The translations under genes were made by a program, and so were the position numbers. Below are positions 647 to 34,040 of a stretch of DNA of 36,156 nucleotides, piece by piece. A model generated the notes under the pieces. It worked only from the letters and a program-made list of their open reading frames with translations. It was not told the DNA's origin and ran no database searches. The stretch covers positions 1 to 36,156 of the forward strand of contig RBNJ01000228.1 in assembly GCA_003990765.1 (NCBI GenBank), written 5' to 3'. The DNA comes from Jimgerdemannia flammicorona (Eukaryota). The first letter of the stretch is position 1. Every line of letters begins with the position of its first letter.

Positions 647-2343
647 TTACTGTTCCTCATTGCACCGCATTCCAAATTCAAATAAAGCATCTTCTATTAC
701 TTTTCCTGTCGATAGTCGCCATTTTTGGTTATCCAGCATATCTCTGAAAACCTTTGCGAAAGCATCCAGATTTGTTCGTGCTGGCTTCGCAGGTAATCCC
801 GATGTCATAATTTCCTGACGTAGCTCCCTCTCTTTCTTTTCCTTAACAACAGCCTCGCATGGGGACATACTGCCATCGCCGGAATCAAGCACTTCAGTCT
901 CATCTATTTCCTCGTCTCTCAGCTAATATTAAGGATAGAAAATGAAAGAATTTGTAGTGAGTTTGAGTTGCGTCAAATTTCTGAGTTTGAGAATCATCAT
1001 TCACCTTCTTAGTCGATATAGACATGTTGGTCTGGTGGTAATCATCAAGGCTGCGCTTATTGAAACGGTATTGTTTCGTTTCTTTTACCTGTAAGCATAA
1101 ATATCAATAATTTGGTCCCGCAAAGGCTAAATCCAAAGAATTAGCAACAAAGGATTGCAAGCAGAACAAAAACTGTTACCAACCGTGCTTTCGATTTGCC
1201 CTTTCGATGATGATGACGACCTGGTATACAGATCTCTGATATTTTTGATTTGTGATTTCCCTGCAGTGCCCACCAGGTCGAGACTCCCATTATCAAATAT
1301 GTCCTTGGTTAATAACTATTACACATAAAACATTATGTAAATTTGCAAGTTTTCGAGAGTCTGAGCATGCATGTGCAGCAGCTATTGCAAACCTGATTCC
1401 GGTGAAGAATTATTGACGACCAGAAATTTTCCAAGTATTTTGTGTCTTTGAACTCGATTTTGGCCTGTCAAGGAAGGTATAAAGCAGTAAGTGCTCGCGA
1501 TAGGCAATATCACCGTTCATATACCCTGAGTAGGTAGAAAGTGGGTCGCGTATAGGGGGACTGTCACTCTCATCGGGATTTACCTTCCAAAGAGCTGTCC
1601 CACACTACCACTCGGGCTGAGATCTTCTCTCATCACTCTCATCGGGATTTACCTTCCAAAGAGCTACCCTTCCACTGAGAAAAATTTTTTTTTTTTCAAC
1701 ACTCACCTTTTTTACCACGTAATCTCCCAAATGTGTTATCTCTTGTAAAAAGCGTTGCCCCCATGTATTTTGATTAGCGTACCAAGTTTTAGAAAATGGT
1801 GGGTTCGCGCTGATAACGTCTCGGTTGGCATTTAGAAATGCGAAATAGGAGACATCCTCCCAACGAGTACTGGCCAAATAATCGCAAAGAGCTGCCAAGT
1901 GAAAGGTAATTAATACCTCACGCAACTGACGTACCTGAACCCAAAAGAGACCGATAAATTACCAGAATGGCCTAAGTATTTCTCCGTGTTGGACATGGAG
2001 GGTGATAACTCGTCCTCTGCCGGGGCCATACCACTTCGCTGGTATTTGGCGGTGGTTTTCTATTATGACGAGATCAGTTTAATTCCAACATAAATACATT
2101 CGGAGAGTAGGGAGTTTGATAGAATGGATCGGTTTATTTATTACAAAAACAAGAAAACAAGAATACTGCTATACCTCGTCTACGTCCTCCGATGCTTCCG
2201 AGTCGTCCTCCTCGGCGTTACGCGCCGCCGCGAGCACTGTTTTTAAAGTAAAAGAGCTGTAAGACCAGCCAGTTTACTATCGTTCGAAATATATTACCTT
2301 CATAGCCGGGATAAGGGGAAGACAGCCCACCGAGTGTCGACAT
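647..2343 (-). CDS. 5' part of a multi-exon hypothetical fungal gene; the downstream part lies beyond the LTR and window edge
   Basis: ATG at 2343; GT-AG spliced frame MSTLGGLSSPYPGYE/VLAAARNAEEDDSEASEDVDE; exons ALCDYLASTRWEDVSYFAFLNANRD...WGQRFL (~1710-1890) and KWRLSTGKVIEDALFEFGMRCNEEQ (650-920) followed by donor GTAAGT; CpG-rich like the host genes. Function unassigned, internal exon structure not fully resolved. Confidence 0.65.
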
Positions 2344-2535
2344 TATGGAGGAGGGAGGAGAGAAGGGAATGTTTTGATCAACGCCCTATATACATATACG
2401 TTGCGCGTCAGTGGCTTGGCTTACACTGTGACGTAATGCCCCGTGAAAGTTACCACTTCTCTGAGATCATCTTTATCAACTAGTTTACGTTATGGGACAT
2501 GCGTATGTAGGATTATCCCTATATAAAATATCAAT

Positions 2536-2868
2536 ATGAAACTAGTTTACATTAAATCCACTATGGAACCGAAAAATTATAGTACCATCAGAAGCATTTT
2601 GAAACAAGAGCAAGGTGAGAAAATTGCTCCATATGTTTTCAAAGTATCCAGCACTAGAGTTATTCAAGAATATTTGGATAAAGAGAAAATTACCTATGAA
2701 ATTTACCAACAATTATATGTCAATTCTAATAATTCTAATAGAAACATAAATATTACTTACTAAGAAGATATTTCCAGATGAAGTCAGTAGGAATTAAATT
2801 TTAAGAAATAAGAATTACTAAAAATATTCCAAGAGTTTAAGAAAAAAAGACAAATCTCTAAAGAGTAG
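2536..2868 (+). pseudogene. Decayed AT-rich intronless ORF, MRE-like hypothetical protein
   Basis: 75-aa ORF continues in frame past C>T-type stops and a TGA: ...NITY*EDISR(TGA)SQ*ELNFKK*ELLKIFQEFKKKRQISKE*; K/E/I/N-rich. Confidence 0.45.
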
Positions 2869-4508
2869 AATATTATAGATATCATATATAGGGGTATTCT
2901 TATATATATTCTTTAATATGCTCTATGGAAGAAATTTTACAAACTGTATATAATATATATATATTAGATGTCATAATTATGAATAAATATGAGAAAGCTC
3001 TCTATTTCCTAGAAGTGGGATATGGTTGCGGTTGCTCAACTAAGACACCAAAAGAAAAATTTGCTGAATTGTAAGAAGACTTTCAAGCGTTAACAAAATC
3101 TGAATAAGACATTTTCTTAATAGCTCAACTCAAATCTATGGATGGAAGAGTGATAAGTACTAGTTAGTATTTTAAGAACAAAACTTGGATCAATAAAAGA
3201 ACTGTCTACTGCTGAAATCATAGCACTCTGATTTGCCAAAAAACTTACCTCAATATGCTTGATATTGGTTATAATTATTTTGAAAATATTCAAAATCATT
3301 TGTTAAAGAATAGTCTTCTATCATAAGTCTATAGTAATATAAAAAGAATGTCATAGTGAAAAACCAGAATGGGTATCGATATTTATTATGGCTACTGTAA
3401 TCAAGAATTTTTTGCTAAATTATGTCAAAATTTATAGCCTACCTAGCTCAGTCAGAAATATTAATCATATGACCCAATCAATTATCTTTCTACTGATAGA
3501 AATAAGCTATAAGTCTGTTCACTAGGATTTTTTAGCCAGTCTGGAGAATAATAGTAAATTGCATAACCTCAAGTATGATGCATTCTGCAAATTATAATAC
3601 CAGTTAACCCTGTATATTCAAATTATGAGTCTGAGAACTAATTTATATGATACTTACCAGTATTTGTAAAATGACTTACAGTTTAAAGCTCATAAAGAAG
3701 AAGAGGCCTAAGATTTATTAAAGAAATATAAAGAACATTTAGCCAAAGCCAAGTTAGAACAAAATTATTATAACAGAAATACTAAGTTGATAGAAGAATA
3801 AAAGAAACTTATCAACCAAAATCAATCTATACTGAAAGGTAAGGCATCATATTGTAGTATTGAAGCCACCTCTCATTATAGCTCTAACTGAGCTCAAAAT
3901 GTTCATATTCCTCATTTCGATCAACAAATTGATAAAGTATATTATTTTAGTACTCATAAAGTGCATTTGTTTGATATTCAAGATGAAGCAGTATAGGAGC
4001 AAATTAATTATATACTAGATGAGAATGAACTGCTTGGAAAAAGTCCAAATGGCACCCTTAGTCTAGTCTTCAATGAAATTAAGCAATTAAATAAAGGTGA
4101 GAAACATTTGAAAGTTATCTGTGATAATACAGGTGGACAAAACAAAAATAATACTACTCTTTAGTTTTACCTATACCTGGTAATTGCTAGTTATTATGAA
4201 AGTATTGAATTGAACTTCATGGTTCCAGGTCATACCAAGTTCAAGTGCAATGGTAGCTTTGGTCTAATTAAAAGACTTTATCATAATACTATGGTAGATT
4301 GTATAGATCATATGGTAGAGGTGGTAAAGAAGTCCAATATTATTGAGCTAAACAAAGCTCAGCATTATAATGGTAATAGAGGATTTCAATATTATGATAT
4401 CATAAGCAGTCTAGAAACTTATTTCAAAAAGTTGCCTAGTTTATAAAAGTTTCAGCATTTTCTTTTCACTAGTACTAATCCTAGGGTGATCAAAGCCCAA
4501 AGAGTCAC

Positions 4509-6583
4509 TATAAGCATACAATCTCCAAACTGCAGAAATCACATGTCATCCTCTGAATAAGCTATTGAAATCACACATGACCTCTAAACAAATCTGAAAA
4601 TCACCTGCTTGATCATGAAGCTGAGTCAAACTAAAGTCACAGCATACAAAGATGAGTCAACATGAAGTCACAGAATATAAGATTTACACAAATAGAATCT
4701 TACCAATCAGGACCAAATATATATATACCAAGTACTGAGATGCATTGAAATAGAGAACCAAAACAAACAACAACTATAACTTCCAAACATACACAAATAT
4801 GACCACTGAGATCTACAACCACATCTGCACTGACATTTGGAATGTCATTGTCAATCAAGCCACACCCCCTCTACCTCTCATGAATATCCATAGTCTAGTA
4901 CCCCTCTACTTTGTGAAAGCCTGATGAAATGCTCTGAACATACTTAGCGAGGTCCACCAAATCAGACAAATCTCAAGCTACTACTAGATCAGCTACCTCC
5001 TAGAAGACATAGTCGAACACTACTATGATACAGACATTATCCAGATGTCCCAACACCAGAAACTTATTGTCTGTAAATATCAAGAACTCTTTTATGAGTA
5101 CAGTATCTTTATTCCTTGCCTCTGAGTTACTACCAGCAAAATGGTTGCTACTCTATCCTATGGCCAAATCAATGACATGATATAAGAACTCAACCATAAG
5201 TACCTCGAATATGTTCAGACCATAGACAGAACCTTCCCACACCCCAATGACCATATTCTGCAAATGCCTCAAGTCAGATATACCATGAAGGATGTCTATG
5301 ATATAATCTGATTTGATGAAGATGAAGCAGAAGACAATGATCCCTCTGATGCCAACATGATCTCAAGCCAAGGATCTCTGCCAACTCTGATCATACCACC
5401 AACCTTACTAATAAACTTACAACAGTTCATAACTACATATGAGACTTATTGGGACAATGACCACTGGCACAAATACTAACCTGTATTTACTTCTGATTAT
5501 TTCAACTATAATGAAGAGACCAGAGAATACAACCTGTACCTTCAGACAACTCTCGAGATTAAACCAACCACTCTGCTACCCAAGTATGAGTGATATGAAC
5601 TATAGCTGCCAGCTTACTACAACTCTACAACTCATAGTGCTGTAATCTATAGAAGGTATGCAGATAGCGAATCTGATGAAAGTGAAGATAATGCACCCCT
5701 TCTTCACCCACCAATACCTTATCCAGCATATGAAACAGATAATTCTATCCTGTAGGATAGTGACGAAGTCCCAATATATTATTATCTCAGCAAACAAGGA
5801 GAAGTAATCCATGAACCACTCTTCCTAGATGACTACTTTATTAGAGATGATACCATTGATAGTGATGTCATCAAAGACTACCCAGATAGTGTCTAAATCT
5901 ATAGATAGCCTAACAGTCATAGTATAGTTAGATTAGCCTTATATGATGTGACTGTAAACTGACTCAGCAGTCAGATGATCTCTTGATATATCAGATTACA
6001 CTTGTACTATGTGACTATATTCCGACTCAGCAAAGTACTAAGTACTACATCCATATTTAGTATAGCTCAGATAGTCCCTCACTAGTATAAATACCTCCTC
6101 CCCCAGACCTCAGAATCTCAGACTTGAAATAGACTCAAACATGCAAGAACATTCCTAAACACTTTCCCACAATATCCCTTTACACAACTACTCCTAGTAT
6201 AGTAATATCATGAATAGTGAATAAACCTATTTGATAACCCACAAACTACTCTTAAGTAAATCCACTCTCTATTAGGTCCCACTCCTAACCCTGTCATGAA
6301 ATTTCCTAATTAGGTATTGTCTACAGTGATACACTGATTCAACTAAGCTGGTCTTAGTTTCTTGAACTTTCTGAAATATAGAAAATCCTGAATATCCAGA
6401 ACTAGTTCAAAAAAGGACTTTGGTTGAGACATTAACCTGATCTTGAAATCAATAAGTATAGAGGATGTACTCCATATGAAATTAATCTTGACCTTAAGAA
6501 AATGGTCTTCTAGAATACTCAGAACTTCCAGAAAACTCTTCCAGAACTATGTAATGGTTACTCTAAAAAGCAACCCTCTTATA
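4509..6583 (+). mobile_element. Solo LTR A (2075 bp), Ty3/gypsy
   Basis: Full-length match to 25454-27526; TG...CA termini decayed to TA...TA; 5-bp TSD GTCAC (4504-4508) / GTCAT (6584-6588). Confidence 0.95.
4799..5896 (+). pseudogene. LTR (U3)-encoded ORF, copy in solo LTR A
   Basis: 1098 nt from ATG (MTTEIY) to TAA, same length as the other copies, with many C>T stops. Confidence 0.7.
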
Positions 6584-7729
6584 GTCATAAATAGTCTTTT
6601 CCAGGAATTCAAGTTACTGAAGTGTAAGAGGGTTGCCTTTTAGGGTAACCGTTATATAGTTTTGGAAGGGTTTTCTGGAAGTTCTGGATATTTTGGAAGA
6701 CTGTTTTCTTATGGTCAAGATCAATTTCATATGGAGTACATTTTTTATACTTATTGATTTCAAAATCAGATTGATGTCTCAACCAAAGTCCTTTTTTGGA
6801 CTAGTTCTAGATGTTCAGGATTTTCCATATTTCAGGAAGTTTAAGAAACTAAGGCCAGCTTAGTTAAATTAGCATATCACTGCAGATAATACTCAATTAG
6901 GAAATTTCGTAATGGGGTTAGAAGTGGGACCTAACAGGGAGCAGATTTACTTAAAAGTGGTTTATGGGTTATTAAATAGGTTTATTCGCTATTCATGATA
7001 TTGCTATACTAGAAGTAGTTGTATAAAGGGATATTGTGGGGAAGTGCTCAGAAGTTATATTTGAATTGTTCAAGTCTGGTCAAGTCTGAGATTCTGAGGT
7101 CTGGGAGAGGGGGTATTTATACTAGTGAGAGGCTATCTGGGCTATACTAGATATGGATATAGCACTAAGTACTTTGCTGAGTCAGAATGCAGTCATGTAG
7201 TATAAGTGTGATCTGACATGTCAAGAGATCGTCTAACTGCTGAGTTAGTTCACAGTCACATCATACAAGGCTAATCTAACTATACTATGACTGCTAGGCT
7301 ATTTATAAGTTTAGACGCTATCTGAGTAGTCTTCAATGATATCATCATTGATAACATCATCCCTGATGAAGTAGTTGTCTAGGAAGAGTGGTTTGCGGAT
7401 TACTTCTCCTTGTTGGCTGAGGTAGTAATACATTGGAACTTCGTCTCTATCTCACAGAATAGCATCATCTGTCTCATATGCTAGATAAGGTGTTGGTGGG
7501 CGAAGAAGGGGTATATTGTCTTTCATCAGATTCACTGTCTGTATACCTTCTATAGGTTACAGCACTATGAGTTGCGGGGTTGTAGTAAGCTGGCAGCTGT
7601 GGTTCATGTTGCTCATACTTAGGTGGTGGAGTTGTTGGTTCGATTTTAAGGATTGTCTGAAGGTACAGGTTGTGTTCTCTGGTCTCTTCATTGTAGTTGA
7701 AGTAATCAGGGGTTAGTGCTCCAAATGAG

Positions 7730-8020
7730 TCAATTCGAATCAAATCTAGATTCAATTTGTCACATAATAGTTTGATCTGAATCTCAAATTCGAAGCCATC
7801 TGAATCAACTCAGATTAATCTGAATCACCCCATCCAAATCACCCTATCTGAATCACCCATCCGAACCACCCCAATCCGAATCACTCAATCCGAATCACTC
7901 AATCTGAATCACTCAATTCGAATCCTCCAATTCGAATCCTCCAATTCGAATCCTCCAATTCGAATCCTTCAATCCGAATCCTCATCCAAATTCTTCAACT
8001 GAATCCTCTAATCCAAATCC
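7730..8020 (+). repeat. Left subterminal short-repeat array of the hAT element (~14-bp units such as CGAATCCTCCAATT / CGAATCACTCAATC)
   Basis: Tandem GAATC-containing units directly visible; typical hAT transposase-binding region. Confidence 0.85.
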
Positions 8021-8199
8021 TCTATATGACTCATATGTCGGATGTGTCTACAATACAATACACACACATACACAATACATATACATACATACACATATAC
8101 ATACACATGCAAACACACAAATATATATGTCGACAGATCAGTCTTCAATAGTTCACAGTACCGATGATGCTTTAAGTCAAACATCTCTGATAGTTCTAC

Positions 8200-10724
8200 A
8201 CCTTTCACACAATTCTTGCTCCAAAATCTGGCAACATTGTGCTAAGATAGGAGATGATGTTGTTTGTAATTATTATAGGTAAAAAATTAAGACACACCTA
8301 TTGACACTTTTTGTTTGTTTTGACATACACATGATATTGTTTCATCTACTACTAGTCAGAAGTTCAAAATACTTGTGGATATGACTTCGAACATGAATCG
8401 ATATATAAAAGACAAGTACTCTGACAAAATCAAAAAGAATATGAAGACAAATAAAATCGACATCCAAGCTGTGGTGGGTACATTTATCTGATTGCCCAAC
8501 CATTTCTGTACCAACAATGCCATTTAATCAAAATATTTAGTCATACTCTTTGGCAGAATTTCAAAATTGGCTCATTCGCTGGATTGTGTACACAGACCAG
8601 CCATTCACAACCATCAAGAGTGATCAATTACATAGCATCTTTGGCCTCCTCAAGTATGATTTATATTTGCCAAGTACTGATACTATTCGCAAAGATGTCC
8701 TGGAGGCCTATAGGAAGAAGCATGACAATCTCCACCAGACACTTCAGGTAAAATAAGAGCAGCATTATGACCTTTGTAAGCTGAATTATATAAGAGCTCA
8801 CCAATTTAACCTCATATTCAATAAGTAGAATTTGGCAGGCAAAATTTTGTTTACAATCGACACATAGACATCCCCCAATGCAATTTCGTTTCTGGGCATT
8901 ACTGGTCATTAGATTGACCTCGATTGGTAGCTTAAATCTCTCACCCTTAACTTTGTCAAACTTGCTGGCCCTCATTCTGGAGACAACATCATAGATACTT
9001 TTATTAGTTGTATCTGAGAGCTTGGGATCACCACCAAGGTAAAAAAGAGGGGCTTGCCATTAGGTCAGCATTTTGAGGGAGGTCCTAAACCAAACCAGAT
9101 TTTATTGGTTATTTATTTTCACATAAATTTGCCAACCGAATATTTCAAGTACAGATTTTGGCCATTACAACAGACAATGCCACAAATAACTCAACATTTT
9201 TCAAAGTTTTAGTGGTCAGCCTCAAACAGGAAAACATGGCCTTCAGTGCAGAAAGCTGCTGTGTGCGATGCCAGGCCCATGTACTGAACCTCGCTGTTCA
9301 GGACTATCTTATGCACATAGACAAAACATCTGAGAGAAGAGGGGCCCTGAGTATAATTTTCAAGCTGCACAACCTGGTTGTATCAGTCTGATCATCCCCA
9401 CAATGACGAGACAAATTCGCTGCACAGTATAGAGCAATCAGTTTAGCCCTGAAAGAGCTTATATTGGATGTCTATATGTATTGGAACTTAACATTTGTAA
9501 TGATCCAGCATGTGCTGGAGTTTGTTGTGATATATATCCTTTTTTTCTTCAGTCAGCTGAAGCAACTTGTTTCAGATGATTGAAGATTTATTTAAAAAAA
9601 AAAACAAAAAACAAAAAAAGCCAATAGATTCAACAGTGGCTACTGATAAGGAAATACAGGCCGAGGCTCTAGGTGAAAGTGAGTGGGACGTACTTAGGAA
9701 TATTATCAGAGTTTTGGAAGTAAGTGGTGACTGCTCTGGCTCTACACTCATTTTGTCTGCCTCCGCATAATGCAATATCTCACCACATGTAACTGTCAGT
9801 GTTTCGATGATTGTATGAAGGATATAGTCAAACAAATAACTCTGACAATAAGCTTGGCAATACCAGTATACAACCTTCTGATTGACTGGCTAGAGGACAA
9901 GCTTGAGGACAGGCTGGAGGGTTGTGGTGATTTTTGGTTGAGCCCAAATCAGAGAGACACCATGGAGGTTGCTCTTAGCAAGCTCAGAAAGTACTACTCC
10001 CAAACAGATACTGTCATATATTCAATCAGTACAGGTATGTTGATGTCAGCATGTGGTCATTGCCCCTTCCAAAACAGAGAAACCCCCATAAAAACACACT
10101 CTCTCCTCTCCTTCAAACAGTGCTGGACCTACGCTTAAAGCTACAATACCATAAAGATTAGGGCTAGGAGCAGTACTTCATTGAGAGAACCAAGCAGGCC
10201 ATAATCGAAGTGTACCAGAAAAACTATGCACCACCACAAGGTTTCAGCCAAAGTCTGGATGAATATGCTGAGGGATCCCTCCTGTCCTACATTTACTTCA
10301 GCAGAAAGAGGAAGAGGGAGCTGTCAGTGGAAGAGCTGCTGTCAATAGACAAACTTACCATTTACCTTGCCAGCAACTGCATGATCCTACTGGAGGGTGC
10401 AGAGATACTCAACTGGTGGAAGGTGGGTTGTCAGGTAGGTGTTGGGCCAATTTAACCCACCAATCTAACCACCGCTCTAACCACTGCTCTACCCACCACT
10501 CTATCCACTGCTCTACTCACCAGGGTGTGTAGCTACATCAAACAGACTTCTCCAGCCTGTGTGGTATGGCTTGGGACTACTTGGTGATTCCTGCCTCCAG
10601 TGCTCCTATCAAGTGAGTGTTCTTAGGTGGGGTGGACCTCATTGCCCCAAAGAGGTATGTGCTGAATGCTGAGACAATCTGGATGTATATGTATCTGAAG
10701 TCTTGGTGGGGCTTGGGCCACTAA
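8200..10724 (+). pseudogene. hAT transposase pseudogene (intron-containing)
   Basis: BED-finger-like SKIWQHC...VVCNY; WIVYTDQPFTTIKS...LPSTDTIR; ITTDNATNN; VRCQAHVLNLAVQ; decayed LILDV..WN; C-terminal dimerization region LNWWK...DYLVIPASSAPIK*VF...LKSW; internal stops. Start approximate. Confidence 0.92.
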
Positions 10725-10829
10725 AATTTGGTAGGTCCTGGGGGTTCACGGATAAGTTGGTTAGCCTTGTGGAGTATTTAATATCTTTCAAAAATAATAA
10801 AAGGTAAAAAACCCTGAAGACTCAGCCTG

Positions 10830-11500
10830 GAGTTTGCGGCCCAAGTGGGCAGCGGTTGGCAGAGTTGGTGGTGGCGGTAGAGGGAGTACGCAATGTTTGC
10901 GGCCCTCCGCCAGCTGCAAGGGGCAGCCCCAAGCTGTTAGTGCCTGGATTAATGGGCGGGTCAGTGGGCAGGTCAGTGGGTGGGTCGGTGGAGGGAGTGC
11001 ACAAAATTTGCGGCCCTTTGCTAGTAGCAAGGGGCAGCCCCAAGCCACAAGTGTCCTGGTCAGGGGGATTGGCAGAGGGAGCATGCAAAACTTGCAGCTC
11101 TCTGTCAGTAGCAAGGGGCAGCCCCAAGCTATCAGCACTCAGGTCAGTGGGTGGGGTCGGTCGGCAGGGTTGGTGGGCACAGGGTCAGTAGAGAGAGTGT
11201 GCAAAATTTACGGCCCTCTGCCAGTAGCAAGGGGCAGCCCCAAGCCGCAAGTATCTGGGATGGGTGGAGCAGGTGGAGGGAGCATACAAAATTTGTAGCC
11301 CTCCACCAGCAGCGAGGGGTAGCCCCAAGCTGTCAGCACCTGGGTCAGGGGCAGGTGCGGGTTGGCAAGAAAGTGTGCAAAATTTGCGGTCCTCCACCGG
11401 TAGCAAGGGGCAGCCCCAAGCTGCAAGTGTCCAGGACGGGTAGGGCAGGTAGAGGGAGCATGCAAAATTTGCGGCCCTCTACCAGCGGCATAGGGGCAGC
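10830..11500. repeat. GC-rich tandem array, ~7 copies of a ~45-bp core (GCAAAATTTGCGGCCCTCYRCCAGYAGCAAGGGGCAGCCCCAAGC) with alternating spacer types
   Basis: Cores near 10889, 11000, 11084, 11201, 11286, 11377 and 11462; the overlapping six-frame ORFs here are repeat artefacts. Confidence 0.9.
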
Positions 11501-11516
11501 TAAGGAGTCTGGGGCA

Positions 11517-11596
11517 GAGAGTGCTTCTGGTGGCCGGAGGGTGCTTCTGGCAGCTGGAGAGTGCTTCTAGTGGTCGGAGGGCGTTTCTGGTGGTCA
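11517..11596. repeat. 20-bp tandem repeat x4 (GAGRGTGCTTCTGGTGGYCG)
   Basis: Directly visible with period 20. Confidence 0.85.
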
Positions 11597-11773
11597 AGGT
11601 CTGCCACAGATTTAGGCCCTATCGCTGGTTCGAGTTTGGGTCCCATGGGTACCCTGGCCCTATGCCACAGTACCGCACTGGCAGCACCGCAGAGTAGGGC
11701 CAAGGGGCCGGTAGGGCCCTACATAACAGCTAAGCTAGTGCTACAGAAGAGGCACCTGGCCCAACCCCCTACA

Positions 11774-11866
11774 TAAGACTGCCCAATCTGTACAAAATGA
11801 CTGCCTAACTCTCATGAAAGACTGCCTAACCCTCACGAAAGATTGCCTAACCCTTACAAAAACTGC
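11774..11866. repeat. ~21-22-bp tandem repeat x4-5 (AAGACTGCCTAACCCTCACGA-like) just downstream of the cargo gene stop
   Basis: Directly visible. Confidence 0.75.
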
Positions 11867-11880
11867 TCCACCCGCTGGTC

Positions 11881-13833
11881 CTAGGCCTTGATGAGTCTAT
11901 CATCTATTGTAAGTGCAACGACTGTTGTATTCAAGCTCTCCTCAAAGGCGACAGTGCTGTAGTGGTCATGTGGTTGGAAGAGGATAGCCGTGTTGGCTGC
12001 AAACGGGACCCCAAAACCATAGGTGAGGTCATACCAGACTCTCCCACTATCCTCCCAGATTGGGCCCTTCCTTTCTGGGATGTAAAACATTACTGGAGTA
12101 ATATTGTTATCTGTGTGTGTGGGCAGAGAAAGGTTGTGTCTGATGTATCCTGATGTGACATGAGTATACAGTTGGGTGAACCCTTGGTCCAGGACCTCAT
12201 ACTGCCAGACTATACTGGTGGATGCCTGCCCTTGGTCCAGCCCCAGGAGCCCTGGCTTGGAAACCTGCCAAAATGGACAGCAACTAGTCAGTCCTTTTTG
12301 CATGCGGGGGGGCAGAAACCCCCCGGGCTGCAGAAACCCCCCGGGCTGCAGTATCCCAAAAAAGCGGAGCTCCTTACCTCATACGGTATGCTAAATTGCA
12401 CCAAGAATATACATACAGCCGTGCCGAGATCACCACTAAGCTGGCCTGCCATATGCTCTATCAATCTGCTCAAAGAACCCCAGATCATAGCCACCATCGC
12501 TGCATAGGCCGTGTCATGCTTGCATGCAGTTTGCTCTTTGACGGCACTTCTAAAGTTCCAGTAGGGGTACAGAATCTTGTGCATCCCTGGATTTGTATCA
12601 AAAAGAGTATGTCGGTGAAGAGTGTGATTTATCTGGGGAGTAAAAAAAAAGGGAGATGAGTACAGGGGATTTCGGAACTCCGGAACCCACCTTTCGCCAG
12701 TGTTGCAGTATACCCAATTCCCATCCAAACCCCCCCTCCTTGCTTTTTTCACCCCCTCTTTCCTATCACCCAGTATTTGACACAATCCTCATAAATCTTG
12801 TTGATATGGCAGTGAAGCTTGTTGCTGTAGAGGTTCCTTATTACCATTGCAACCACTTCTCCATGTTTGTTAATAAAGATATGGTTCTCTTCATCATTAA
12901 TTACTCCTGCTGACCAATGGACCCCTTGGTCGAGAACGATTGGCTCTGATTCAAATGTAGACCCCCAAGCCTTAATGACAATGCTGGTACTGCTCATACT
13001 GAACATGCTCTCGAATTTCTCTATTTGATCAGACACCAGATGTGGTTGAACTCGGGTAACTTTGAACTCTCCTTTCCAATGGAACTGAGCTCTAATCTGA
13101 GGGACCAAGATAAGTGTGCAGATAGGTTGCGTGCAGACAGGTTGCATGTGGGCGAGTTGCATACAGGCGGGTTGCATGTGGGTGTGGGTGTTTTTTAAGG
13201 AGAGACCACATAAAAAATGAAATTAAATAAAACACAAAGATGGGTATTTCAGAAAAGAGTGTGAGTGAGTGAGTGAGTGAGCTACATGCCAACAAGTTGC
13301 ACATCGACAAGTTGCATGAGTTACATAAGATTGCTCATGAAGGCTTATTTCTGTTCCTTTTGAGACCTCCGCCATATAATATATTGACTCAACAGCTCAG
13401 CCACCAAAGGCATACCCTACAACATCTTCCAACCTTTCTTCATCTTGACCAGATGTTGCAAATAAAGTCGGCAGATCTTACTGTAGAGCTGTGGACCCTA
13501 AGAAGAGCACGAGATGAATCAGGTCATGCTGGGGGAAATTTAAACAAGTAAAAAGTAGCGGCAGAAAAGAGCAACCTACATCTACTACTGGCTGCTCCAA
13601 AAAGGCTACTGCATACATAGCTATGAGGTCTGTAAATTCCGAGGTCCAAAGGGCCACCATGAGTTATTGCCAGAATTCACCCTCATCTCCACCATCGCCA
13701 TTACCATTGCCATTGCCACTACTGTCACCCCTTTGGCTCTCGATGAGCAGCTTGTGTGCTGCTCATATGAGAAAGAATCTAATATTGTTAGCAGAGAGTG
13801 TGTTTCCACCTCAAATACTCCCTTTTTTGACAA
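11881..13833 (-). pseudogene. hAT cargo gene: putative TET/JBP-like Fe(II) dioxygenase (spliced, decayed)
   Basis: In-phase intron 12265-12377 (GTAAGG...CAG) joins ...QFSIPYE to VSKPGLLG...; last exon has GYIRHNLSLPTHTDNN (HxD) ... WYDLTYGFGVPFAANTAILFQPHDHYST (double-stranded beta-helix strands, distal H-S-T region); upstream GEVVAMVIRN strand. 5' exons (13325-13833) are decayed and less certain. Confidence 0.6.
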
Positions 13834-14034
13834 TTATTATAGGGTGAAAAATGAGTAGACTGGACCAACATATAAATTAAGGGCTGCTGTTTTGTTTGCT
13901 CATGATGCAGCAGGAAAGAACAAAGAAAAAGAACAAAGAAAAGAGAGGAAACAAAGAAAAGGGTGATGTCACCAAAGTGTGGCAGGAAAAAAAAAACAAG
14001 AGTGAAATGAATAAAAGAAAGAATGATATCACCA

Positions 14035-14185
14035 AAGATTTCAATCTAGATGGATCAATCCGGATAGATCAATCTAGATGGATCATCCAGATGGATCATC
14101 TGGATCAGATTACGAGACCAATCTGAGTTGATTTGAACCCATCACATGATGAATCTGAATTGAATCTCATCTGGATCAACTCCAT
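14035..14185. repeat. Right subterminal repeats of the hAT element (GATGGATCAATCYR-like units)
   Basis: Short GGATC/GAATC-rich repeats adjacent to the right TIR. Confidence 0.75.
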
Positions 14186-15480
14186 TCATTCAGAGCACTA
14201 TTGGGGGTAAATGTAGGTTGGTATTCGTGCCAGTGGTCATTGTCTCAATAAGTCTCATATGTGGTTATGAACTGTTGTAAGTTCATTGGCAAGGTTAGCA
14301 GTGTGATCAGGGTTGGCAGAGATCCTTGGCTGGAGGTCATGTTGGCATCAGAGGGATCATTGTCTTTTGCTTCATCTTCGTTAAAGTGGATTATATCATA
14401 GACGTCCTTCATAGCATAACCAACTTGAGGCATTTGTAGGATATGGTCATCAGAGTGCGAGAAGGTTCTGTCTGTAGTCTTGACATACTCGAGGTACTTA
14501 TAGTTGAGTTCTTGTATTATGTCATCGATTTGGCCATAGGACAGAGTAGCAATCATTTCACTGGTGGTAACTCAGAGGTAGGGAATAAAGGTGCTGTACT
14601 CATAAAAGAGTTCTTGGTGTTTGCAGGTGATGGGCTTCTAGTGTTGAGACATCTGGATAATGTCTGTATCATGGTGGTATTTGACCATATCTTCTAGGAG
14701 GCAGCCAATCTGGTAGTAGCTTGAGATTTGTCCAATCTGGTGGGCCTCATTGAGTATGTTCAGGGCATTCCATCAGGCTTCCATGAAATAGAGGGGTGCC
14801 AGGCTATGGATATTCATGAGAGGCAGAGAGGATGTAGCTCGGTTGATAATGACATTCCAAATATCAGCATGGATGCAGTTGTAGATCTTGGTAGTCATGT
14901 TTGTATATTTGGAAGTTGTGGTTATTGTTTGTTTTGGTTCTGCTTCAATGCATCTCAGTGCTCAGTATATATATATTTGGTCCTGATTGATAAGATTCCA
15001 TTTTGTGTAAATCTTGTATTTCATGACTTCATGTTGACTCAGCTTTGTGCACTGTGACTTCAGTTTAACTCAGCTTTGTGATCTTGCAAGTAATTTCTAG
15101 ATTTGTTCAGAGGTCATATGTGATTTTGGTGGCTTAGAGGTTATGTGCTTATATGAAGACTAGTAAATTTACAACTCCTCAATCTATAGAAAAAATCAAA
15201 GCTTTGTCATTTCCAGTGCTTAAGCCTCTTCTTATAGAATTGAAACACTAAGAGTACCTCTATCACAATATTCACCTCTTTGTCTGGGATGAATTCAAAG
15301 ATATTACTTGTCCAAGACTGACTTATAATAATAATGAATAAAAAAATTCAATTATTGCTTGTTAATGTTGTTAAGTTTAATAAGTCATCTTTCACAAATA
15401 TTACTAGCTTTTCTTACTTTTAAAAATAAAATTATTTATATATTTAACAATAAAAATAAATAATAATAATAAAAAAAACT

Positions 15481-17205: not shown

Positions 17206-21521
<4,316 letters not shown>

Positions 21522-21690
21522 GAGTTTCTTGGTTCTTGGGGTCAGGAATCAGGAATCGGAATCGGAATCGGGGAATGGGTATAATTATAAATAAAAGACT
21601 TGGTCAATTGTTTCAGTTATAATTGTTTCTCAGGAATGTGACTGCTGCATATGTATATACGTGGCGAAGTCTCCGTGCCCTCCATCCTCG
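21522..21690. promoter_or_regulatory. Short divergent intergenic region, candidate bidirectional promoter for IRE1 and GPI10
   Basis: ~170 bp between start codons; AT-rich TATAATTATAAATAAAA at ~21580-21596; (A/C)GGAAT repeats ~21544-21576. Confidence 0.6.
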
Positions 21691-23957
21691 ATGCTCATGG
21701 ACCACTCCATTTATACTCGAAAGCGGAATCCTTCACCAAAGCCACCATCCCCACCCCCACCCCCATCTCCCCCTCCCCAGCAATCTACCCCCTTGTCATC
21801 CACCCTCCTCTTCTGCTTCCTCGTCTCCTTTCGCCTCGTGAATGCCCTGATCCAGAGGACCTACGACAATCCCGACGAATACTGGCAGTCGCTTGAAGTT
21901 GCCCACAATCTGGTTTTTGGATATCCTTTTGATGAAATTTTACGCGCTGTCGAGCTATGTCATCCACGCTTGTTCTTAACTCTATAATGAATGCTCTGTA
22001 CACACGTATGGGTATCTGACATGGGAATGGCGGTCGCAAATACGAAGCTTCGCCCATCCGCTCATATTCGCCGCTTTGTACAAGCTGCTCGCGGTGATAG
22101 GGCTCGATGAAACCGGATTTTTTGTAAGGTCACTTTAAGCTGGATGATCAAGCACTTGCGATCCGATGGATATGCATCGTGTAATTTGCGCATCTATACT
22201 CGTAGTTCCTAGCACCGCACCTTCTCCAGGCAGTATTTGCTGGCGTGGGCGATTACTACACGTGTCGATTTGCACAGAAAGCCGTTGGCATGTGGATCTC
22301 ACCCACGATCGTAAGTCCTCGCTAACACCATCACCTTGGATTGTTTCATGCAAAAATGTACACATTCAACCCAAAATTACCCTCCCACACTCTCTTAGCT
22401 CTTTAGCACCCTCACTTCCTGGTTCAACCTTCACACCGCTGTCCGGCCTCTCTCCAACTCCCTCGAGACGGTCCTGACCGTCGTCGCACTATTCTATTGG
22501 CCGCTCCCGGGCGTGGTCGCCGAGATCGATCCGCGATGGCAGAGCGGACTGCGCGTTGCGCTCGTGTGGGCAGCTGTATCGTGCGTGATTCGTCCAACTA
22601 ATGGCGTTGTTTGGTTGTTTTTGGGAGTGCATCTCCTGTGGAGATGCCCTAACAGGCAGTTAAGTATAATGATAAACACGGCAATTGTGATGTAGGTATA
22701 TTAGTTTTTCGTTCGTGCAGTATACATTTGTTGGACTTGCCATAGCATAATTTCATTGTCGGTCATTTCACATGCATCAGGGTGCTCGCATTTGGTACCG
22801 TCCTTACCCTCGATACCTATTTGTATACCGGTTCCTTCTCCGCCCTCCTCACCGCCCCTATTATCGCTCCGCTCAATTTCCTCCGCGTCAACGTTTTCAA
22901 CTCCATCTCCCTCTTCTATGGCATCCACTCATGGCATTGGTATCTCACCCAAGGCCTCCCCGTGTTGCTCACGACCTTCCTCCCGTTATTCATCTCAGGA
23001 CTGTGGCTTTCTTACGCAGACCCAGCACTCCGCACACGCACCATCCCTCTCCTCTACCTCCTCGCTTTTGTCATATCCGTTTATAGTCTCCTCCCTCATA
23101 AAGAATTCCGGTTCATCTACCCCTTACTTCCCATCCTCCTCCTCTTTGCCTCCATCGGTTTGCACAATCTTTCCCCGAAACACAAATGGCTCGCAATGGT
23201 CGCGTTGGTGATGACTAACATACCCATGGCGTTGTACACGAGCATTTGGCATCAACGAGGAGTGGTTGATGTCATGCGGTGGGTGAGAGAGCGAGCGCAA
23301 CCGGGGATGGAGGTGGAGTTTCTGATGCCATGTCATTCAACACCGTGGTATTCGGAGGTGCATGATAAAGAAGTCAATCTGGAATTTTTGGGGTGCGAGC
23401 CACCATTAGAGTGAGTAGCCCCCTTTCGCTCGATGTTTCTTAATGATGTATTGTTTTTAAAATATATATATATATTGATGTGCCGACTTCGACTCCCAAC
23501 TCCCTCGAACAGTCCAACCGATCCTACGTACATGGACGAAGCGGACGTTTTTTACGCGAATCCACGGCGCTTCATTCTTGATCGATTCAACAGATCTTCA
23601 GTACAAGGGCGGGCCTGGCCGACACATCTGGTCATGTTTGAGGCGTTATTGAAGATGGAGGATGAGGATGGTTCTTTACGAGGGTTATTTTTGGGAAAGG
23701 GGGAGAATGGGGAAGGAATTTATCGTGAGGTAAGCGGGGATATTTTAGCTTGATTTCAGAGATCGAAATGGGGACATGTTCATGTATTGATTGTCTGACT
23801 ATCGATTCTCTCTGCCCGCGAACCATCGTTTAACGTCAAAACAATTTAGTGCGCACGGTTCTTCAACACACATTTCAATGGTGACTGGCGGCGTAAGGGG
23901 GACGTCATCGTGTTATGTTATAACGATACTGGTGAGGATTTCGTGCATATTGCATGA
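21691..23957 (+). CDS. GPI10: GPI mannosyltransferase 3 (PIG-B/Gpi10, Alg9-like GT22 family), multi-exon
   Basis: FRLVNALIQRTYDNPDEYWQSLEVAHNLVFG/YGYLTWEW; SNSLETVLT; IRPTN; FYGIHSWHWYLTQG; YSLLPHKEFRFIYPLLP; HQRGVVDVM; FLMPCHSTPWYS; DEADVFYANP; FFNTHFNGDWRRKGDV. Start is ATG 21691 or 21697. Confidence 0.96.
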
Positions 23958-25453: not shown

Positions 25454-27526
25454 TGTAAGTGCACAACCTCCAAGCCACCAAAATTACATATCACCCTCTG
25501 AACAAGCCACCGAAATTACACGTGACCTCTGAACAAATCTGGAAATCACCTGCTTGATCATGAAGCTGAGTCAAACCAAAGTCACAGTGCATAAAGCTGA
25601 GTCAATATGAAGTTACAGAACACAAGATTTATACAAACGGAATCTTATCAATCAGGACCAAATGCATATATACTGAGCACCGAGACGCGGCGAATCAGAA
25701 AACCAAAAAAAACAACAACCACAACTTCCAAACACACAAACATGACCACTGAGATCTACAACTGTATCTGCGCTGACATTTGGAATACCATTGTCAACCG
25801 AGCCACACCACCTCTGTCTCTCATGAATATCCATAGCCTGGTACCCCTCTACTTTGTGGAAGCCCGATGGAATGCCCTGAACATACTTAGCGAGACCTAC
25901 TGAATCAGACAAATCTCAAGCTACTACTAGATTGGCCACCTCCTGGAAGACATGGTCGAACACCACCATGATACAGACATCACCCAGATGTCTCAACACC
26001 AGAAGCTCATTGCCCGCAAACATCGAGAACTCTTCTATGAGTACAACACCTTTATTCCCCGCCTCTGAGTCACTACCAGCGAAATGGTTGCTACCCTATC
26101 CTATGGCCAAATCGATGATATGATACAAGAACTCAATCACAAGTACCTCGAGTATGTCGAAACCACAGACAGAACCTTCTCACACCCCAATGATCATATC
26201 CTACAAATGCCCCAAGTTGGATACACCATGAAGGACATCTACAATATAATCCACTTCGATGAAGATGAAGCAGAAGACAATAATCCCTCTGATACTGATA
26301 TGACCTCTAGCCAAGGATCTCTGCCAACCCTGATCACTCCGCTAACCTTCCCGATGAATTTACAATAGTTCATAACTACATACAAGACTTATTGGGATAA
26401 TGACCCCTGGTATGAATACCAACTTGCATTCACCCCCGATTACTTCAACTACAATGAAGAGACTGAAGAACACAACCTGTACCTCCAGACAACCCTCGAG
26501 ATAGAACCAACAACCCCACCACCTAAGTATGAGTGACATGAACCACAGCTGCCAGCTTACTACAACTCTGCGACTCATAGTGCTGTAACCTATAGAAGAT
26601 ATACAGATAGCGAATCCGATGAAAGTGAAGACAATACACCCATCCTTCGCCCACCAACACCTTATCCAGTATACAAAACAGACGATGCTATCCTGTGGGA
26701 TGGAGATGAAGCTCCAATGTATTACTACCTCAGCCAACAAGGAGAAGTAATCCGCGAACCACTCTTCCTAGATGACTACTTCATCAGAGATGATGCAATC
26801 AATGGTGATGTCATTGAAGACTACCCAGATAGTGCCTAAACCTATAAATAGTCTAGCAGTCATAAGTATAGATAGATTAGCCTTGTATGATGTGACTGTG
26901 AACTAACTCAGTAGTCAGACGATCTCTTGACATATCAGATCACACTTGTACGACGTGACTGCATTCGGACTCAGCGAGGCACTTAATGCTATATCCATAT
27001 TCAGTATAGTCCAGATAGCCCCTCACTAGTATAAATACCCCCTCCCCCAGACCTCAGAATCTCAGACTTAAACAGACTTGAACACACAAGAACATTCCTG
27101 AATACTTCCCCACAATACCCCTTTACACAAATACTCCTAGTATAGCAATATCATGAATAGCAAATAAACCTATTCCATAACCCACAAACCACTTTTAAGT
27201 AAATCCACTCTCTGTTAGGTCCTACTCCTAACCCCATCACAAAATTTCCTAATTGGGTATTGTCTGCAGCGATACACCAATTCAACTAAGCTGGTCTTAG
27301 TTTCTTGAACTTTCTGAAATACAGAAAATCCTGAACATCCAGAACTAGTCCGGAAAAGAACTTTGGTTGAGACATCAACCCAATCTTGAAATCAATAAGT
27401 GTAGAGGACGTACTCCATATGAAATTGATCTTGACCATAAGAAAACGGTCTTCCAGAATATCCAGAACTTCCAGAAAACCCTTCCAGAACTACATAACAG
27501 TTACCCTAAAAAGCAACCCTCTTACA
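25454..27526 (+). repeat. 5' LTR (2073 bp)
   Basis: Direct repeat of 34041-36111; TATAAATA 27030-27037; AATAAA 27163-27168. Confidence 0.97.
25742..26839 (+). pseudogene. LTR (U3)-encoded ORF, 365 codons, unknown function (5' LTR copy)
   Basis: ATG MTTEIYN... to ...IEDYPDSA*; single frame with no indels; most stops are sense codons in other copies. Confidence 0.75.
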
Positions 27527-27529
27527 ACT

Positions 27530-27538
27530 TGGTAGCAG
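27530..27538 (+). promoter_or_regulatory. Primer-binding site, initiator tRNA-Met type
   Basis: TGGTAGCAG 3 nt after the 5' LTR, complementary to a ...CUGCUACCA tRNA 3' end. Confidence 0.75.
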
Positions 27539-27559
27539 CAGTTTACAATCCAATTCCAC

Positions 27560-29500
27560 TTCAAGATGCTTCCTCACCCCGCTACAAACCCTTCTGTGAA
27601 TTCCTACAAGTTGGTATAGAGCTCAACCTCTGAACTGGAATTAATCCTGAACCATCTGACAATCTGGAGAGAATTGAACCTGACGTACAAGGACAATTTG
27701 ACCTCCACACCTGCAACAAGTGGGACAAACTTCATTCTAAGAAAGAAGTACTCTGGTTAAACCAGCAAATAGGCGAAACCCTATTCACCGAACTCCTTGC
27801 ACTACACCCAGCAAGTCAAGATGAAGAAGGTCTTATTGAAGTCTTCTTTACCCTTCTCAACAAGAGTTTTGTCAGCTCCACAAATCCAAGCGACCTAGGA
27901 TAACCAGCAGCAGTCTTTCTAGCCTTAGTCCCTCACGAAGCCCAAGCCTCTGTAGCCAAGTGGCTTAACTCTACCAACTTTCACCGCACCAGGACCAAGA
28001 CCGCCTTATACTACCGATTTCAGAACAGCAAGGCCTGCCATATTCTTAAGGAAGAAGTAAGAGAAACTCTTCACCAACTATCTGACCCCGAACCTGAAGC
28101 AGGCCCTACTACAGCCCTACCTGAATCTGAAACCAATACCGAACCTGAACTTGACTTTGAATTAAGTCCATCTGAAATCAGATATACAACTGATTCTGTC
28201 TACTTTGACGCCAAGCAAACCCAATTACACGGGGACCAAACCGAAGAAGAGGAGGAGTATTTCACTGAATTCGATCCCGGATACACCACTGAAGGAGACA
28301 CATGCCCATCAGGACAGAATACACCTACACAGCAACAAACAGTTATCTATCAAGCCCTCACTCCAGACCCACAACTACTACTCCAGCAACTTACACAGAC
28401 CCAAAGAACCCCATCACACTCTGCACCAGTACCTCAAGTAGTACCAGTAACACTACTATCAGCAGTCCAACTACCTCCAGCAATCAACATGGCAAACCAA
28501 TAGATTCTTGATCTCACAGCCCAAGTAGCTATAATAGCAGCAACCATTACTGCCTTAGCCAAACAGACCCGACCTACCAAAAATCTGAGCCTACCTACCT
28601 TCAATAGTACTGCACAAGAAGTCCAAAGCTTCATTAGTGTAGTTGACACTAACTTCGAAGCCAATCAATGGACTAATGAGCGAGTCGCTGACTGTTCTGA
28701 CAAACAATCAAGACCACACTCTGGAACAACTCTTTGCTACCACTACAGCCTATGTCCGCTGAGTTGTTACATTCTTCCAAGGACCTGCTGAAGAATGGTG
28801 GCAAACTCTTCCTAAAAAACCCCTCACATAGGATACCCAACCTGCAGTAGTTGCTCAGAATGCAGCAAATAATGCCCCAGGATATGGAGCCCATTCTGCA
28901 GCCCCTGGACTCAAATAACTCATGATTGCTCAATATCGCAGCGAAACCATGATTGCCAAATCTCGAGTAAAACTCTGCAACCTCAAATTTGATGTATATG
29001 GCAAAGAAGAATTTGAAACCTTTTGTACAAAACTTGAGTCACTCCTGAACACTGTTGACCTAGGATACATCACCAATGATGAAGCATGAAATGGTACAAG
29101 AGCAGACCATTTATTCGATGCCCTGCCTGAATGGCTTACTAGAAAAATCTGAGAACAAGGCCGCCCAGTTGGTTGTGATCACCAACAATAGTGTCTGGCA
29201 AGAATCAAGACCATGATCAAGCAAATCCTAACAGCTGGACCAATTCTGCCCTGAAGACAATTCAACAACAAGGAAAAGACTTGGACCAAGAAAGAAGAAC
29301 CCAAGCATGAAGTATCTCGAGCTCCCTCCACATCCACCTCTTGGACACCCAGAAATCATGAACCCACCCAGCCAAGTACCTTCAAGAAACTTACTGAAGG
29401 CGAAAGAAATAAACTTCAAAGAAGCGGAGCATGCTTCTATTGCCGAAAGACAGGACACATGGCCAGTGCCTGCCCCAACCGAAAACTCCAAACAGCAACA
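27560..29500 (+). pseudogene. gag: Gag with a long N-terminal extension and CCHC zinc knuckle
   Basis: LPTFNS..QEVQSFI and FFQGPAEEWW capsid-like motifs; CFYCRKTGHMASAC at ~29430-29472; frameshift ~28695 and several C>T stops. Confidence 0.85.
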
Positions 29501-29554
29501 TGAGCAACTGTTACCACTCTGCACCATCTCAACAACCTGACCACCAGAATACTA

Positions 29555-29960
29555 GACTTTGTCAAGTTGAGACAAACTGCTAAGGCCCCAACCAAAGAAA
29601 GTCAAAAAGCAGCTGGATATGATCTGTATGCAGCTGAAGAAGCTACAGTTTCCAACCGAGAAGTCAAACAAGTCTATACAGGAATCAGTATCCAAATTCC
29701 TGAAGGACATGTTGGAAGAATATGCTGTCGCAGCAGCCTATCATTGAAAGAACTCTCAGTAGAAGGCAAAGTCATTGACGAGGATTACACAGGCGAAATT
29801 ATTGTCCTCATCCGAAACCATAGTTGGACACCCTTCAAGATCTCTATTGGTTTCTGCATTGCTCAGATCCTATTCAAAAAAATCGAGTCAACCCTGACAG
29901 TCAAGGAAGTCCCTGAACTACTGTCCACCATCTGAGGATCCAAAGGATTTGGCTCATCAA
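29555..29960 (+). pseudogene. dut: dUTPase domain in frame between nucleocapsid and protease
   Basis: All five trimeric dUTPase motifs: AGYDL, RSSL, VIDEDYTGEI, IAQIL and (TGA=R)GSKGFGSS. Confidence 0.95.
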
Positions 29961-30169
29961 ACAAGGCCCCAGCCCAACCTACCATGAGCAAGGAAAAACA
30001 ATTCTACAAGAAGATTGAAGATGGATATGTACCAAGTGGCCAATACCCTCATAGCATTGGAATGTACTCTTCCTGAATGATTGATAATTGCTTCTCTTGT
30101 GTCAGCGAACTGGCTCAAAGAAGAACCAACAGAAGAAAGACTCCTATAACTGAAATCACCAGCATTGGA

Positions 30170-33100: not shown

Positions 33101-33618
33101 TTGCAATTGAGAATTTATCACAAGCTCAAGAACAACAGTCACAGTATGTTAACCAACACCGCCGAGAAGAAACTTTTGATATTGGAGAAAAAGTCCTACT
33201 AGACATCAGAGGATACCGAGTTGACAACCTCAAGCACAAACTATCTACTAAGCTGAACAGTAAGTTCATTAGACCATTTGAAGTCATTGCACAAGTCTCT
33301 CCAACTGCCTATAAACTGGCGCTACTGGACACCATTAAGATTCACCCAGTCTTTAATGTTCAATGTCTCAAGTGATACAATGAGAATAATGACGAGCTAT
33401 TCTCCAACTGGACCACTAAACCACCTGCACCTATCATCATTAATGACCAAGAAGAGTATAAAGTTGAACAAATCCTCAACAAATGTAGCAACAAGAACCA
33501 TCCCGAGTACCTTATCAAATGGAAAGGTTACCCAATCCACGATGCAACCTGGGAACCCAAGACCAATCTTCAGAATACTACCGATCTAGTTCAGGAATAC
33601 GATTCCTTGAATAACTAG
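30170..33618 (+). pseudogene. pol: Pol: aspartic protease, RT, RNase H, integrase, chromodomain
   Basis: IMIDSGASGNF and [26 protein letters not shown] at 31276; NYTTHEKEMLAIV and TDHKSL; GHLG..CDACQ, SMDFI, VSDRDPKF, QTERMNR; chromodomain EEYKVEQIL...[17 protein letters not shown]; 1-nt frameshift ~30862 and several stops. Confidence 0.97.
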
Positions 33619-34026
33619 AACCAAATACTCTGCACCTACCCGTACACTATATTTTATCCTCCCAAACATTATAATTATTGTGAACCAAACCAAAAACTCA
33701 GCAAAACAAGACAAGAATACTGAATCTCTGGAAAAATAGCAAAACTGAAAGCAAGCCTATTCTCCCTGTACCACTGGTGGGAAACAAGGTGTAGACATTT
33801 AAGAAGATTCCTTAGAGGAAATTCTCCAGCAGTGAATGACGTCAGAATTACTTCTGGCGCACAGTATTAAATACACAACCCTTTAACATGTGAATCCAAT
33901 GCATTAGGCAACTGTACTACGAGCATGCCACTTTCTGAGAAAATGGACCTTACCAGACTTTTGATCTCTCAAATGGTATAACAACACTAGAACAAATTAG
34001 AAGGCCTGACAAGGATGTCGAAAGCT

Positions 34027-34039
34027 AAGAAGGGGAGAG
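34027..34039 (+). promoter_or_regulatory. Polypurine tract
   Basis: AAGAAGGGGAGAG 1 nt before the 3' LTR. Confidence 0.9.
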
Positions 34040-34040
34040 T

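Follow-up and report, generated by a model that had tools for sequence, protein, structure and literature searches.

We analysed a 36,156-nucleotide stretch of DNA assigned to Jimgerdemannia flammicorona (assembly GCA_003990765.1, contig RBNJ01000228.1, positions 1 to 36,156; hereafter the window), in which positions 7714–14200 hold a dead, autonomous-type hAT transposon. This element sits in a long terminal repeat (LTR) of a Ty3/gypsy retrotransposon and, in our reading, carries as an integral passenger a very divergent gene of the TET/JBP superfamily, whose product would have weakened silencing by oxidizing bases. We give this combined reading a probability of roughly 0.58. Within it, the element with its boundaries, the transposase, the spliced gene with its small family and kept motifs, and the decay of this copy rest on direct observation, and what we infer is that the protein has a dioxygenase fold, how it acts and on which base, and what the transposon gains from it. 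The intact enzyme would bind iron via a conserved H-x-D motif and the distal histidine of an H-G-S/T motif. It would then oxidize a methylated DNA base, most likely 5-methylcytosine (5mC), and would thereby relieve the element of some of the silencing or mutation that methylation brings about.

The hAT element forms one unit of 6487 bp. Its inverted-end pattern, TAGTGCTCYRAATGA, matched the 36-kb window at two places only, 7714–7728 (+) and 14186–14200 (−), when compared with a mean of 0.29 matches in shuffled sequences (two matches were reached in 4 of 100 shuffles). The terminal arms, TAGTGCTCCAAATGA on the left (+) and TAGTGCTCTGAATGA on the right (−), are identical at 13/15 positions, and the likeness fades past ~16 bases. 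The adjoining target octamers agree at 6/8 positions, both mismatches being transitions. The ends, the transposase gene and the block that follows it are laid out as below.

7706–7713, no strand: left target-site duplication, TCAGGGGT
7714–7728, plus strand: left terminal inverted repeat
7735–8022, no strand: left subterminal short repeats, 14-nt units of GAATC type (arrays at 7817–8022; TCGAATC at 7735, 7918, 7932, 7946 and 7960)
8127–10724, plus strand: hAT transposase pseudogene, several exons, 9 stops
10533–10721, plus strand: hAT C-terminal dimerisation domain (PF05699), one stop inside
10800–11870, no strand: G+C-rich tandem repeats between the convergent genes, units of ~85, 20 and 21 nt
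14041–14185, no strand: right subterminal short repeats
14186–14200, minus strand: right terminal inverted repeat
14201–14208, no strand: right target-site duplication, TTGGGGGT

The flanks of the element are part of a 2.07-kb repeat that also forms the LTRs of a Ty3/gypsy element (25463–27524 and 34043–36109) and has a further copy at 4511–6581 (+). The element is inserted, in reverse orientation, into another LTR copy of this retrotransposon, which it interrupts (6623–7713 / 14204–15135, −). Empty paralogous sites were found in the window at ~35017–35021 and 26432–26437, each with the target octamer once, and when the element plus 8 bp was excised in silico, the flanking minus-strand frame of the repeat stayed open over the join. 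A soil-metagenome run (X1), from which 2663 contigs were aligned to the element region, included two contigs that span the empty site, with joins from 7708 to 14204 and from 7710 to 14206; the gap in each is exactly 6495 bases, that is, 6487 + 8. The 8-bp duplication and the exact boundaries follow from the independent agreement of the empty paralogues, the open frame across the join and the X1 joins. The first-pass annotation of this DNA had enclosed both genes between terminal inverted repeats and an 8-bp target-site duplication, and this outline is borne out by the ends, the empty paralogues and the X1 joins. No second copy of the element was found within the 36-kb window. One X1 contig joins the right end of the element (14200) to position 7578 with five foreign letters between them, and it possibly records a separate integration of this element family elsewhere within the same LTR family.

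On the plus strand, the stretch from an ATG at 8127 to a stop at 10722–10724 reads as a multi-exon hAT transposase, as had been annotated. Its last exon (10533–10721, one stop read through) matched PF05699 Dimer_Tnp_hAT (E 4e-5, 23.8 bits vs. a cut-off of 21.4). The remaining exons show, by eye, hAT-typical motifs reminiscent of an RNase-H-like DDE core and of a BED-like finger at ~8200–8450; searched singly against Pfam and PDB sequences, they gave no match. The four read-through exon stretches contain nine in-frame stops (1+4+2+2), and therefore this copy cannot make transposase. The tandem-repeat block downstream of the transposase reaches 57% G+C and varies in copy number among X1 contigs (10.9–11.5 kb).

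The passenger gene lies on the minus strand, convergent with the transposase. It has three homology-supported exons (12973–12695, 12587–12378 and 12264–11884), and exons upstream of 12973 are likely; the start at ~13833 in the first-pass annotation is putative. Its features are given below relative to two related proteins (P0001 and P0003) and to an intact gene on a metagenomic contig (L001), all of which are described further on.

11881–11883, minus strand: premature TAG stop; P0001 continues with Trp at this place (LIKA*DQRVEQF vs. LIKAWDWWVEQF)
11884–12264, minus strand: last exon, 127 aa, with H-T-D and an altered distal site; 77% identical to P0001 (E 1.9e-59) and 33% to P0003
11959–11961, minus strand: Tyr codon at the conserved distal His position (His in 6/7 aligned sequences, Tyr only in the window copy)
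12109–12117, minus strand: H-T-D codons (His 12115–12117, Asp 12109–12111)
12378–12587, minus strand: middle exon with a GMH..PY.NF motif; E 5.8e-4 to the L001 exon
12695–12973, minus strand: exon with an R-G-K...SAGYT-like motif; E 1.3e-4, in-frame stop at 12749–12751
13040–13833, minus strand: possible 5' exons; best weak match at 13404–13339, E 2.5

The peptides on which a TET/JBP assignment had originally been built (H-T-D, YDLTYGFGV and AILFQPHDHYST) are all present in this gene. The H-x-D...H signature claimed with them holds for the family, which keeps it, but does not hold for the window copy, where the conserved distal histidine is replaced by tyrosine (H-D-H-Y-S-T vs. H-D-L-H-G-T in P0001). 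The relatives' histidine aligns with the Y of HDHYST and with neither H of HDH, so the histidines earlier proposed as distal ligand are not the conserved one. Tyr at the distal His position, a stop within the frame and a truncated end together make the window copy of the gene a dead one. With stops in both genes and the distal His lost, the description of this copy as decayed was correct.

To define the family, the last exon (127 aa) was searched by HMMER against 1.84 billion representative proteins. Six proteins were found at E ≤0.001, three of them at E ≤1e-10, and the relatives include P0001, P0002 (50% identical), P0003 (complete, 374 aa) and P0004. One of the six, P0005 (E 2.2e-5), proved to consist of repeats, does not resemble the others in the motifs and was set aside. 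P0007, which is 46% identical to P0003, came from a search with the latter. The family is very small in the data searched: a profile search found two proteins, P0007 as query found only itself, and no relatives were detected in viral and prokaryote genome contigs. The only sequencing run listed as a match was a soil-metagenome DNA run (0.07 of words), and no RNA run was listed.

A scan of Joint Genome Institute (JGI) metagenomes yielded two AT-rich soil contigs, L001 and L002, which come from different metagenomes and are 99% identical over 2.7 kb. L001 carries an intact three-exon Tet-like gene, in which an exon junction (…S-G|M-H…) coincides with that of the window; the gene in L002 has in-frame stops and that in L001 none. 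Both contigs have a CpG observed/expected ratio (o/e) of 1.2, so their organism shows no trace of CpG decay. At its 3' end, L001 looks similar to the left terminus of the window element, with GATTTGA/GATTCGA repeats at 10 sites in the last 160 bases and a possible hAT-like end near 3623. The alignment of this hAT-like end scored 20 when the best of 1000 shuffles scored 19, which we take as a hint. Also on L001, a spliced-looking gene without a Pfam match lies 3' of the intact Tet-like gene (2320–3260, +).

Seven sequences, including the window copy, were aligned, among them members only ~30–47% identical. The shared blocks are R-G-K…S-A-G-Y-T; G-M-H..PY.NF; L-P.L-D-G-G; G-R-C-A-(S/T)-S-P-(T/V)-H-(V/T)-D; F-Y-N..Y-G-F-G-V; H-G-(S/T); and L-S-x-S. 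All seven sequences have the His of H-x-D and six have its Asp (Asn in P0004); the distal His of H-G-S/T is kept in every sequence except the window copy. A conserved Arg (in G-R-C-A) stands five residues before the H-x-D His in 5/7 sequences.

The ESM Atlas, a source of protein-language-model look-alikes, pointed to the same superfamily from two starting proteins. For P0003, the top match (0.96, with 209/256 features shared) was a basidiomycete cluster, 15% of whose members carry PF20515, a Tet_JBP cluster came next at 0.91, and one look-alike cluster was labelled Mucoromycota. For P0007 (recognition 2506), all 30 named matches carry PF20515 (8) or PF12851 Tet_JBP (22). Its top three PF20515 matches scored 0.94, 0.93 and 0.92, and two of these three clusters bear the name 'Tet-like 2OG-Fe(II) oxygenase superfamily domain-containing protein', the family being carried by 72% and 97% of their proteins. 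On the basis of these look-alikes, we consider it probable that the minus-strand gene is Tet-like. The TET/JBP call of the first-pass annotation thus stands in part, with the conserved H-x-D...H and the language-model look-alikes in its favour and the lack of any Pfam match at E ≤10 against it.

The X1 contigs also inform on whether the gene belongs to the element. Each of the 30 bins into which the region was divided is covered by contigs with 80–100% likeness (in total, 267 at ≥99%, 730 at 95–99%, 1134 at 90–95% and 532 lower), and only 0.01 of the aligned sequence runs on into unlike sequence. The joints in these contigs comprise empty sites, changes in tandem-repeat copy number and a few others, and among the best 13 of 15 joints, none removes the Tet-like gene alone. 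Continuous cover of the Tet-like exons and the absence of a deleting joint fit a component that is present family-wide. It might be argued that the gene came with another mobile element, such as a Kyakuja-Dileera-Zisupton or Plavaka fragment, that was nested in the hAT element; the 1.1-kb G+C-rich tandem-repeat block between the Tet-like gene and the transposase, at which base composition shifts, would be in line with this. However, no second transposase was found inside the element, no inverted or direct repeat pair surrounds the minus-strand gene (11.8–13.9 kb), and among the X1 joints listed, none matches an 'empty' hAT without the gene. We therefore regard such nesting as very unlikely, and the case of a nested insertion with its own ends, which had been named among the outcomes that would refute the original proposal, was not encountered: neither bracketing repeats nor, among the joints listed, a gene-only joint was seen.

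Several results nonetheless weigh against our reading of the element as a hAT transposon with an integral, base-oxidizing passenger, and they concern the fold of the protein, its place in the element and the mutations of the window copy. With regard to the fold, P0003, P0001, P0002 and P0004 matched no Pfam family at E ≤10, PF12851 and PF20515 included, and the window exons of the gene matched none at E ≤1. NCBIfam and PHROGs searches gave nothing meaningful, and PDB sequences searched with two profiles and one protein gave no relevant match. Two AlphaFold models, built on alignments of 6 and 12 rows, were not confident (predicted local distance difference test, pLDDT, 35.1 and 38.4), and Foldseek against PDB with the second, low-confidence model returned chance matches, such as herpesvirus gB at a template-modelling (TM) score of 0.10. 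The Atlas recognition of P0003 (2142) falls below the 2300 mark, a range in which high scores count as weak evidence, and the Atlas itself warns that shuffled proteins reach 0.9 in 4–10 of 100 cases. The family has no Arg ~15 residues past the distal His, the place at which we would presume the 2-oxoglutarate-binding Arg of TET2 to be matched, and has an S/T-rich L-S-x-S instead. In the window copy itself the iron triad is incomplete, as H-T-D is kept and the distal His is Tyr.

The missing database matches, the models of low confidence and the Atlas warning would be expected if the gene encoded no dioxygenase but an accessory transposon protein of another fold, its H-x-D...H being coincidental. 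We find this quite unlikely: P0003 and P0007, for all that they share only 46% identity, give the same Atlas answer; P0007 does so with recognition above the mark and with every named match in PF20515 or PF12851; and the motifs are kept across members as divergent as ~30–47% identity. In addition, published TET/JBP proteins of the PE type hardly register in HHpred (E 1.4 and 19), and it was through predicted structures that they were recognised (Kojima 2025, PMC12730594). Because this published type is equally invisible, we do not take the failure of sequence models as strong evidence against a Tet-like fold.

With regard to the place of the gene, the X1 pieces listed are 151–224 bases long and none bridges the transposase and the Tet-like gene, which is explained by the shortness of the contigs. 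Summed X1 depth is lower over the Tet-like exons (~138, five-bin mean) than over the transposase (~214, ten-bin mean), where depth is not to be read as copy number. Only one copy complete from end to end was observed, and that copy is dead. A lone decayed copy could be accommodated if the Tet-like gene had been captured by chance (transduplication), or were a host gene caught by this copy or its sub-lineage, and did nothing for the transposon. It would also agree with such a capture that the relatives on L001 and L002 lie in DNA without CpG depletion, and that their link to a hAT end is no stronger than the hint described above. Nevertheless, cover by the X1 contigs (80–100% likeness) is as unbroken over the Tet-like exons as over the transposase, and no gene-deleting joint occurs among the X1 joints listed; we hold chance capture to be rather unlikely.

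With regard to mutation, CpG o/e is 0.10–0.44 in the repeat-rich parts of the window and 0.26–0.29 within the element, in contrast to 0.85–1.05 in the genic stretch at 16–24 kb. CpG depletion of the repeats is real, in keeping with the methylation signature noted in them at the outset. Differences between the window and X1 contigs were 528 transitions vs. 23 transversions, and among the 40 best-supported differences 39 were transitions. At 32 positions the window has T/A where C/G is found elsewhere; 7/32 of these stand in a CpG-derived context, which is no enrichment over a background of ~0.3, and 13 stand in a CpA-to-TpA context. In this small sample (n = 32), the recent private decay of the window copy is not CpG-specific.

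Canonical hAT elements such as Ac, hobo and Tam3 have 8-bp duplications, short inverted ends starting with TAG, and subterminal repeats. The window element has in common with them the 8-bp duplication, TAG-type ends, subterminal repeats and the hAT dimerisation domain, but unlike them it has a second, unrelated gene aboard. Passengers of this kind have been described recently: in rusts, mushrooms and Pezizomycetes, complete DNA transposons from 11 lineages are reported to carry TET/JBP genes, among them 20 TET+ hAT7 families with 7-bp duplications in six Puccinia species (Kojima 2025, Biology 14:1741, PMC12730594). The author proposed an escape from methylation-based silencing, an account repeated in a 2026 review (PMC13297926), and the anti-silencing role that we suggest is the same inference. 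The remark in the first-pass annotation that hAT transposons had no standard description of this sort is thereby outdated. The idea of a Tet-carrying hAT element is already in print (December 2025); the 8-bp duplication, the ends, the gene orientation and the dioxygenase type differ here.

Compared with hAT7 of Puccinia, the window element likewise has a TET/JBP-type gene inside hAT ends and the same proposed counter-silencing role. It differs in its duplication, which is 8 bp and not the 7 bp of hAT7, and in its ends, which begin TAGTGCTCC when the one hAT7 end seen (hAT7-1_PGr) begins CAACGGTGGG. In hAT7-1_PCor, hAT7-2_PCor and hAT7-1_PHor, the gene is found upstream of the transposase and shares its orientation, whereas in the window element it lies downstream and is convergent. 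Of six motifs of the window family, only LHGT was found in the supplement of that study (cells to 400 characters), in PE-type rows; the PU-type motifs differ. The PE type, known from transposons of Agaricus and Pezizomycetes, resembles the window family in its strong divergence and in escaping ordinary sequence searches. Two PE-type sequences from its Table S1, inspected by eye, show R-x-G…S-A-G, the metal motif, H-G-T and then G-L-S-F-V-T-S, the block order of the window family, but the hallmark of the PE type is H-x-E and that of the window family H-x-D. CcTET and the AG type (PF20515) of Kyakuja-Dileera-Zisupton transposons are likewise transposon-linked fungal dioxygenases and correspond to the nearest named language-model clusters, but they belong to another transposon superfamily and the window family has no match to the PF20515 or PF12851 hidden Markov models. 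CcTET oxidizes both 5mC and N6-methyladenine (6mA), according to the same study (Kojima 2025, PMC12730594).

We found no description of such elements for Mucoromycota or Glomeromycota in the literature, and neither group is mentioned in the Kojima text (PMC12730594); a literature search for PF20515 found no paper that names it. One could imagine an independent capture of a fourth, undescribed Tet-like type (with H-x-D and H-G-S/T, and no Pfam coverage) by a canonical 8-bp hAT element in a soil fungus outside the rusts, mushrooms and Pezizomycetes, possibly an early-diverging one. This idea is tentative and we consider it doubtful. If it were true, L001, L002 and the Mucoromycota-labelled cluster would represent transposon-borne base oxidases in fungi where 6mA dominates over 5mC, and in such 6mA-dominated hosts the enzyme might act on a different substrate.

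If mobile elements edit the silencing mark of their host, the clearest candidates for doing so are TET/JBP enzymes encoded by transposons. The window element adds to them a canonical hAT lineage and a predicted dioxygenase family unrecognised by sequence libraries, and surveys based on Pfam Tet_JBP will miss passengers of this kind. The window copy is a fossil without present function; among its relatives, P0003 and the product of the L001 gene are intact and could be expressed and assayed.

Elsewhere in the window, positions 25463–36109 hold a complete-looking Ty3/gypsy element, with 2.07-kb LTRs and internal aspartyl protease, RT RNase H and integrase domains; an open frame in its LTR (34654–35322, 222 aa) has no Pfam match. 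A genic island with CpG o/e of ~1 extends over 17421–23753 and includes an IRE1-like gene (−; Pkinase, E 2.1e-30, and Ribonuc_2-5A, E 3.6e-24) and an Alg9-like mannosyltransferase gene (+; Glyco_transf_22, E 2.6e-42). At 1605–1958 (−), an open frame with an N-P-P-F motif gave a sub-threshold match to N6_Mtase PF02384 (E 0.02, 14.7 bits vs. a cut-off of 20.4) and may be the remains of a gene for an N6-adenine methyltransferase; this family is placed in Mucoromycota and Glomeromycota by a 2026 review. Lastly, in an AT-rich stretch adjoining an LTR copy, a 93-aa frame at 4165–4446 (+) matched DUF7869 (E 1.4e-5, 25.3 bits, cut-off 26) and is possibly the remnant of another mobile element.

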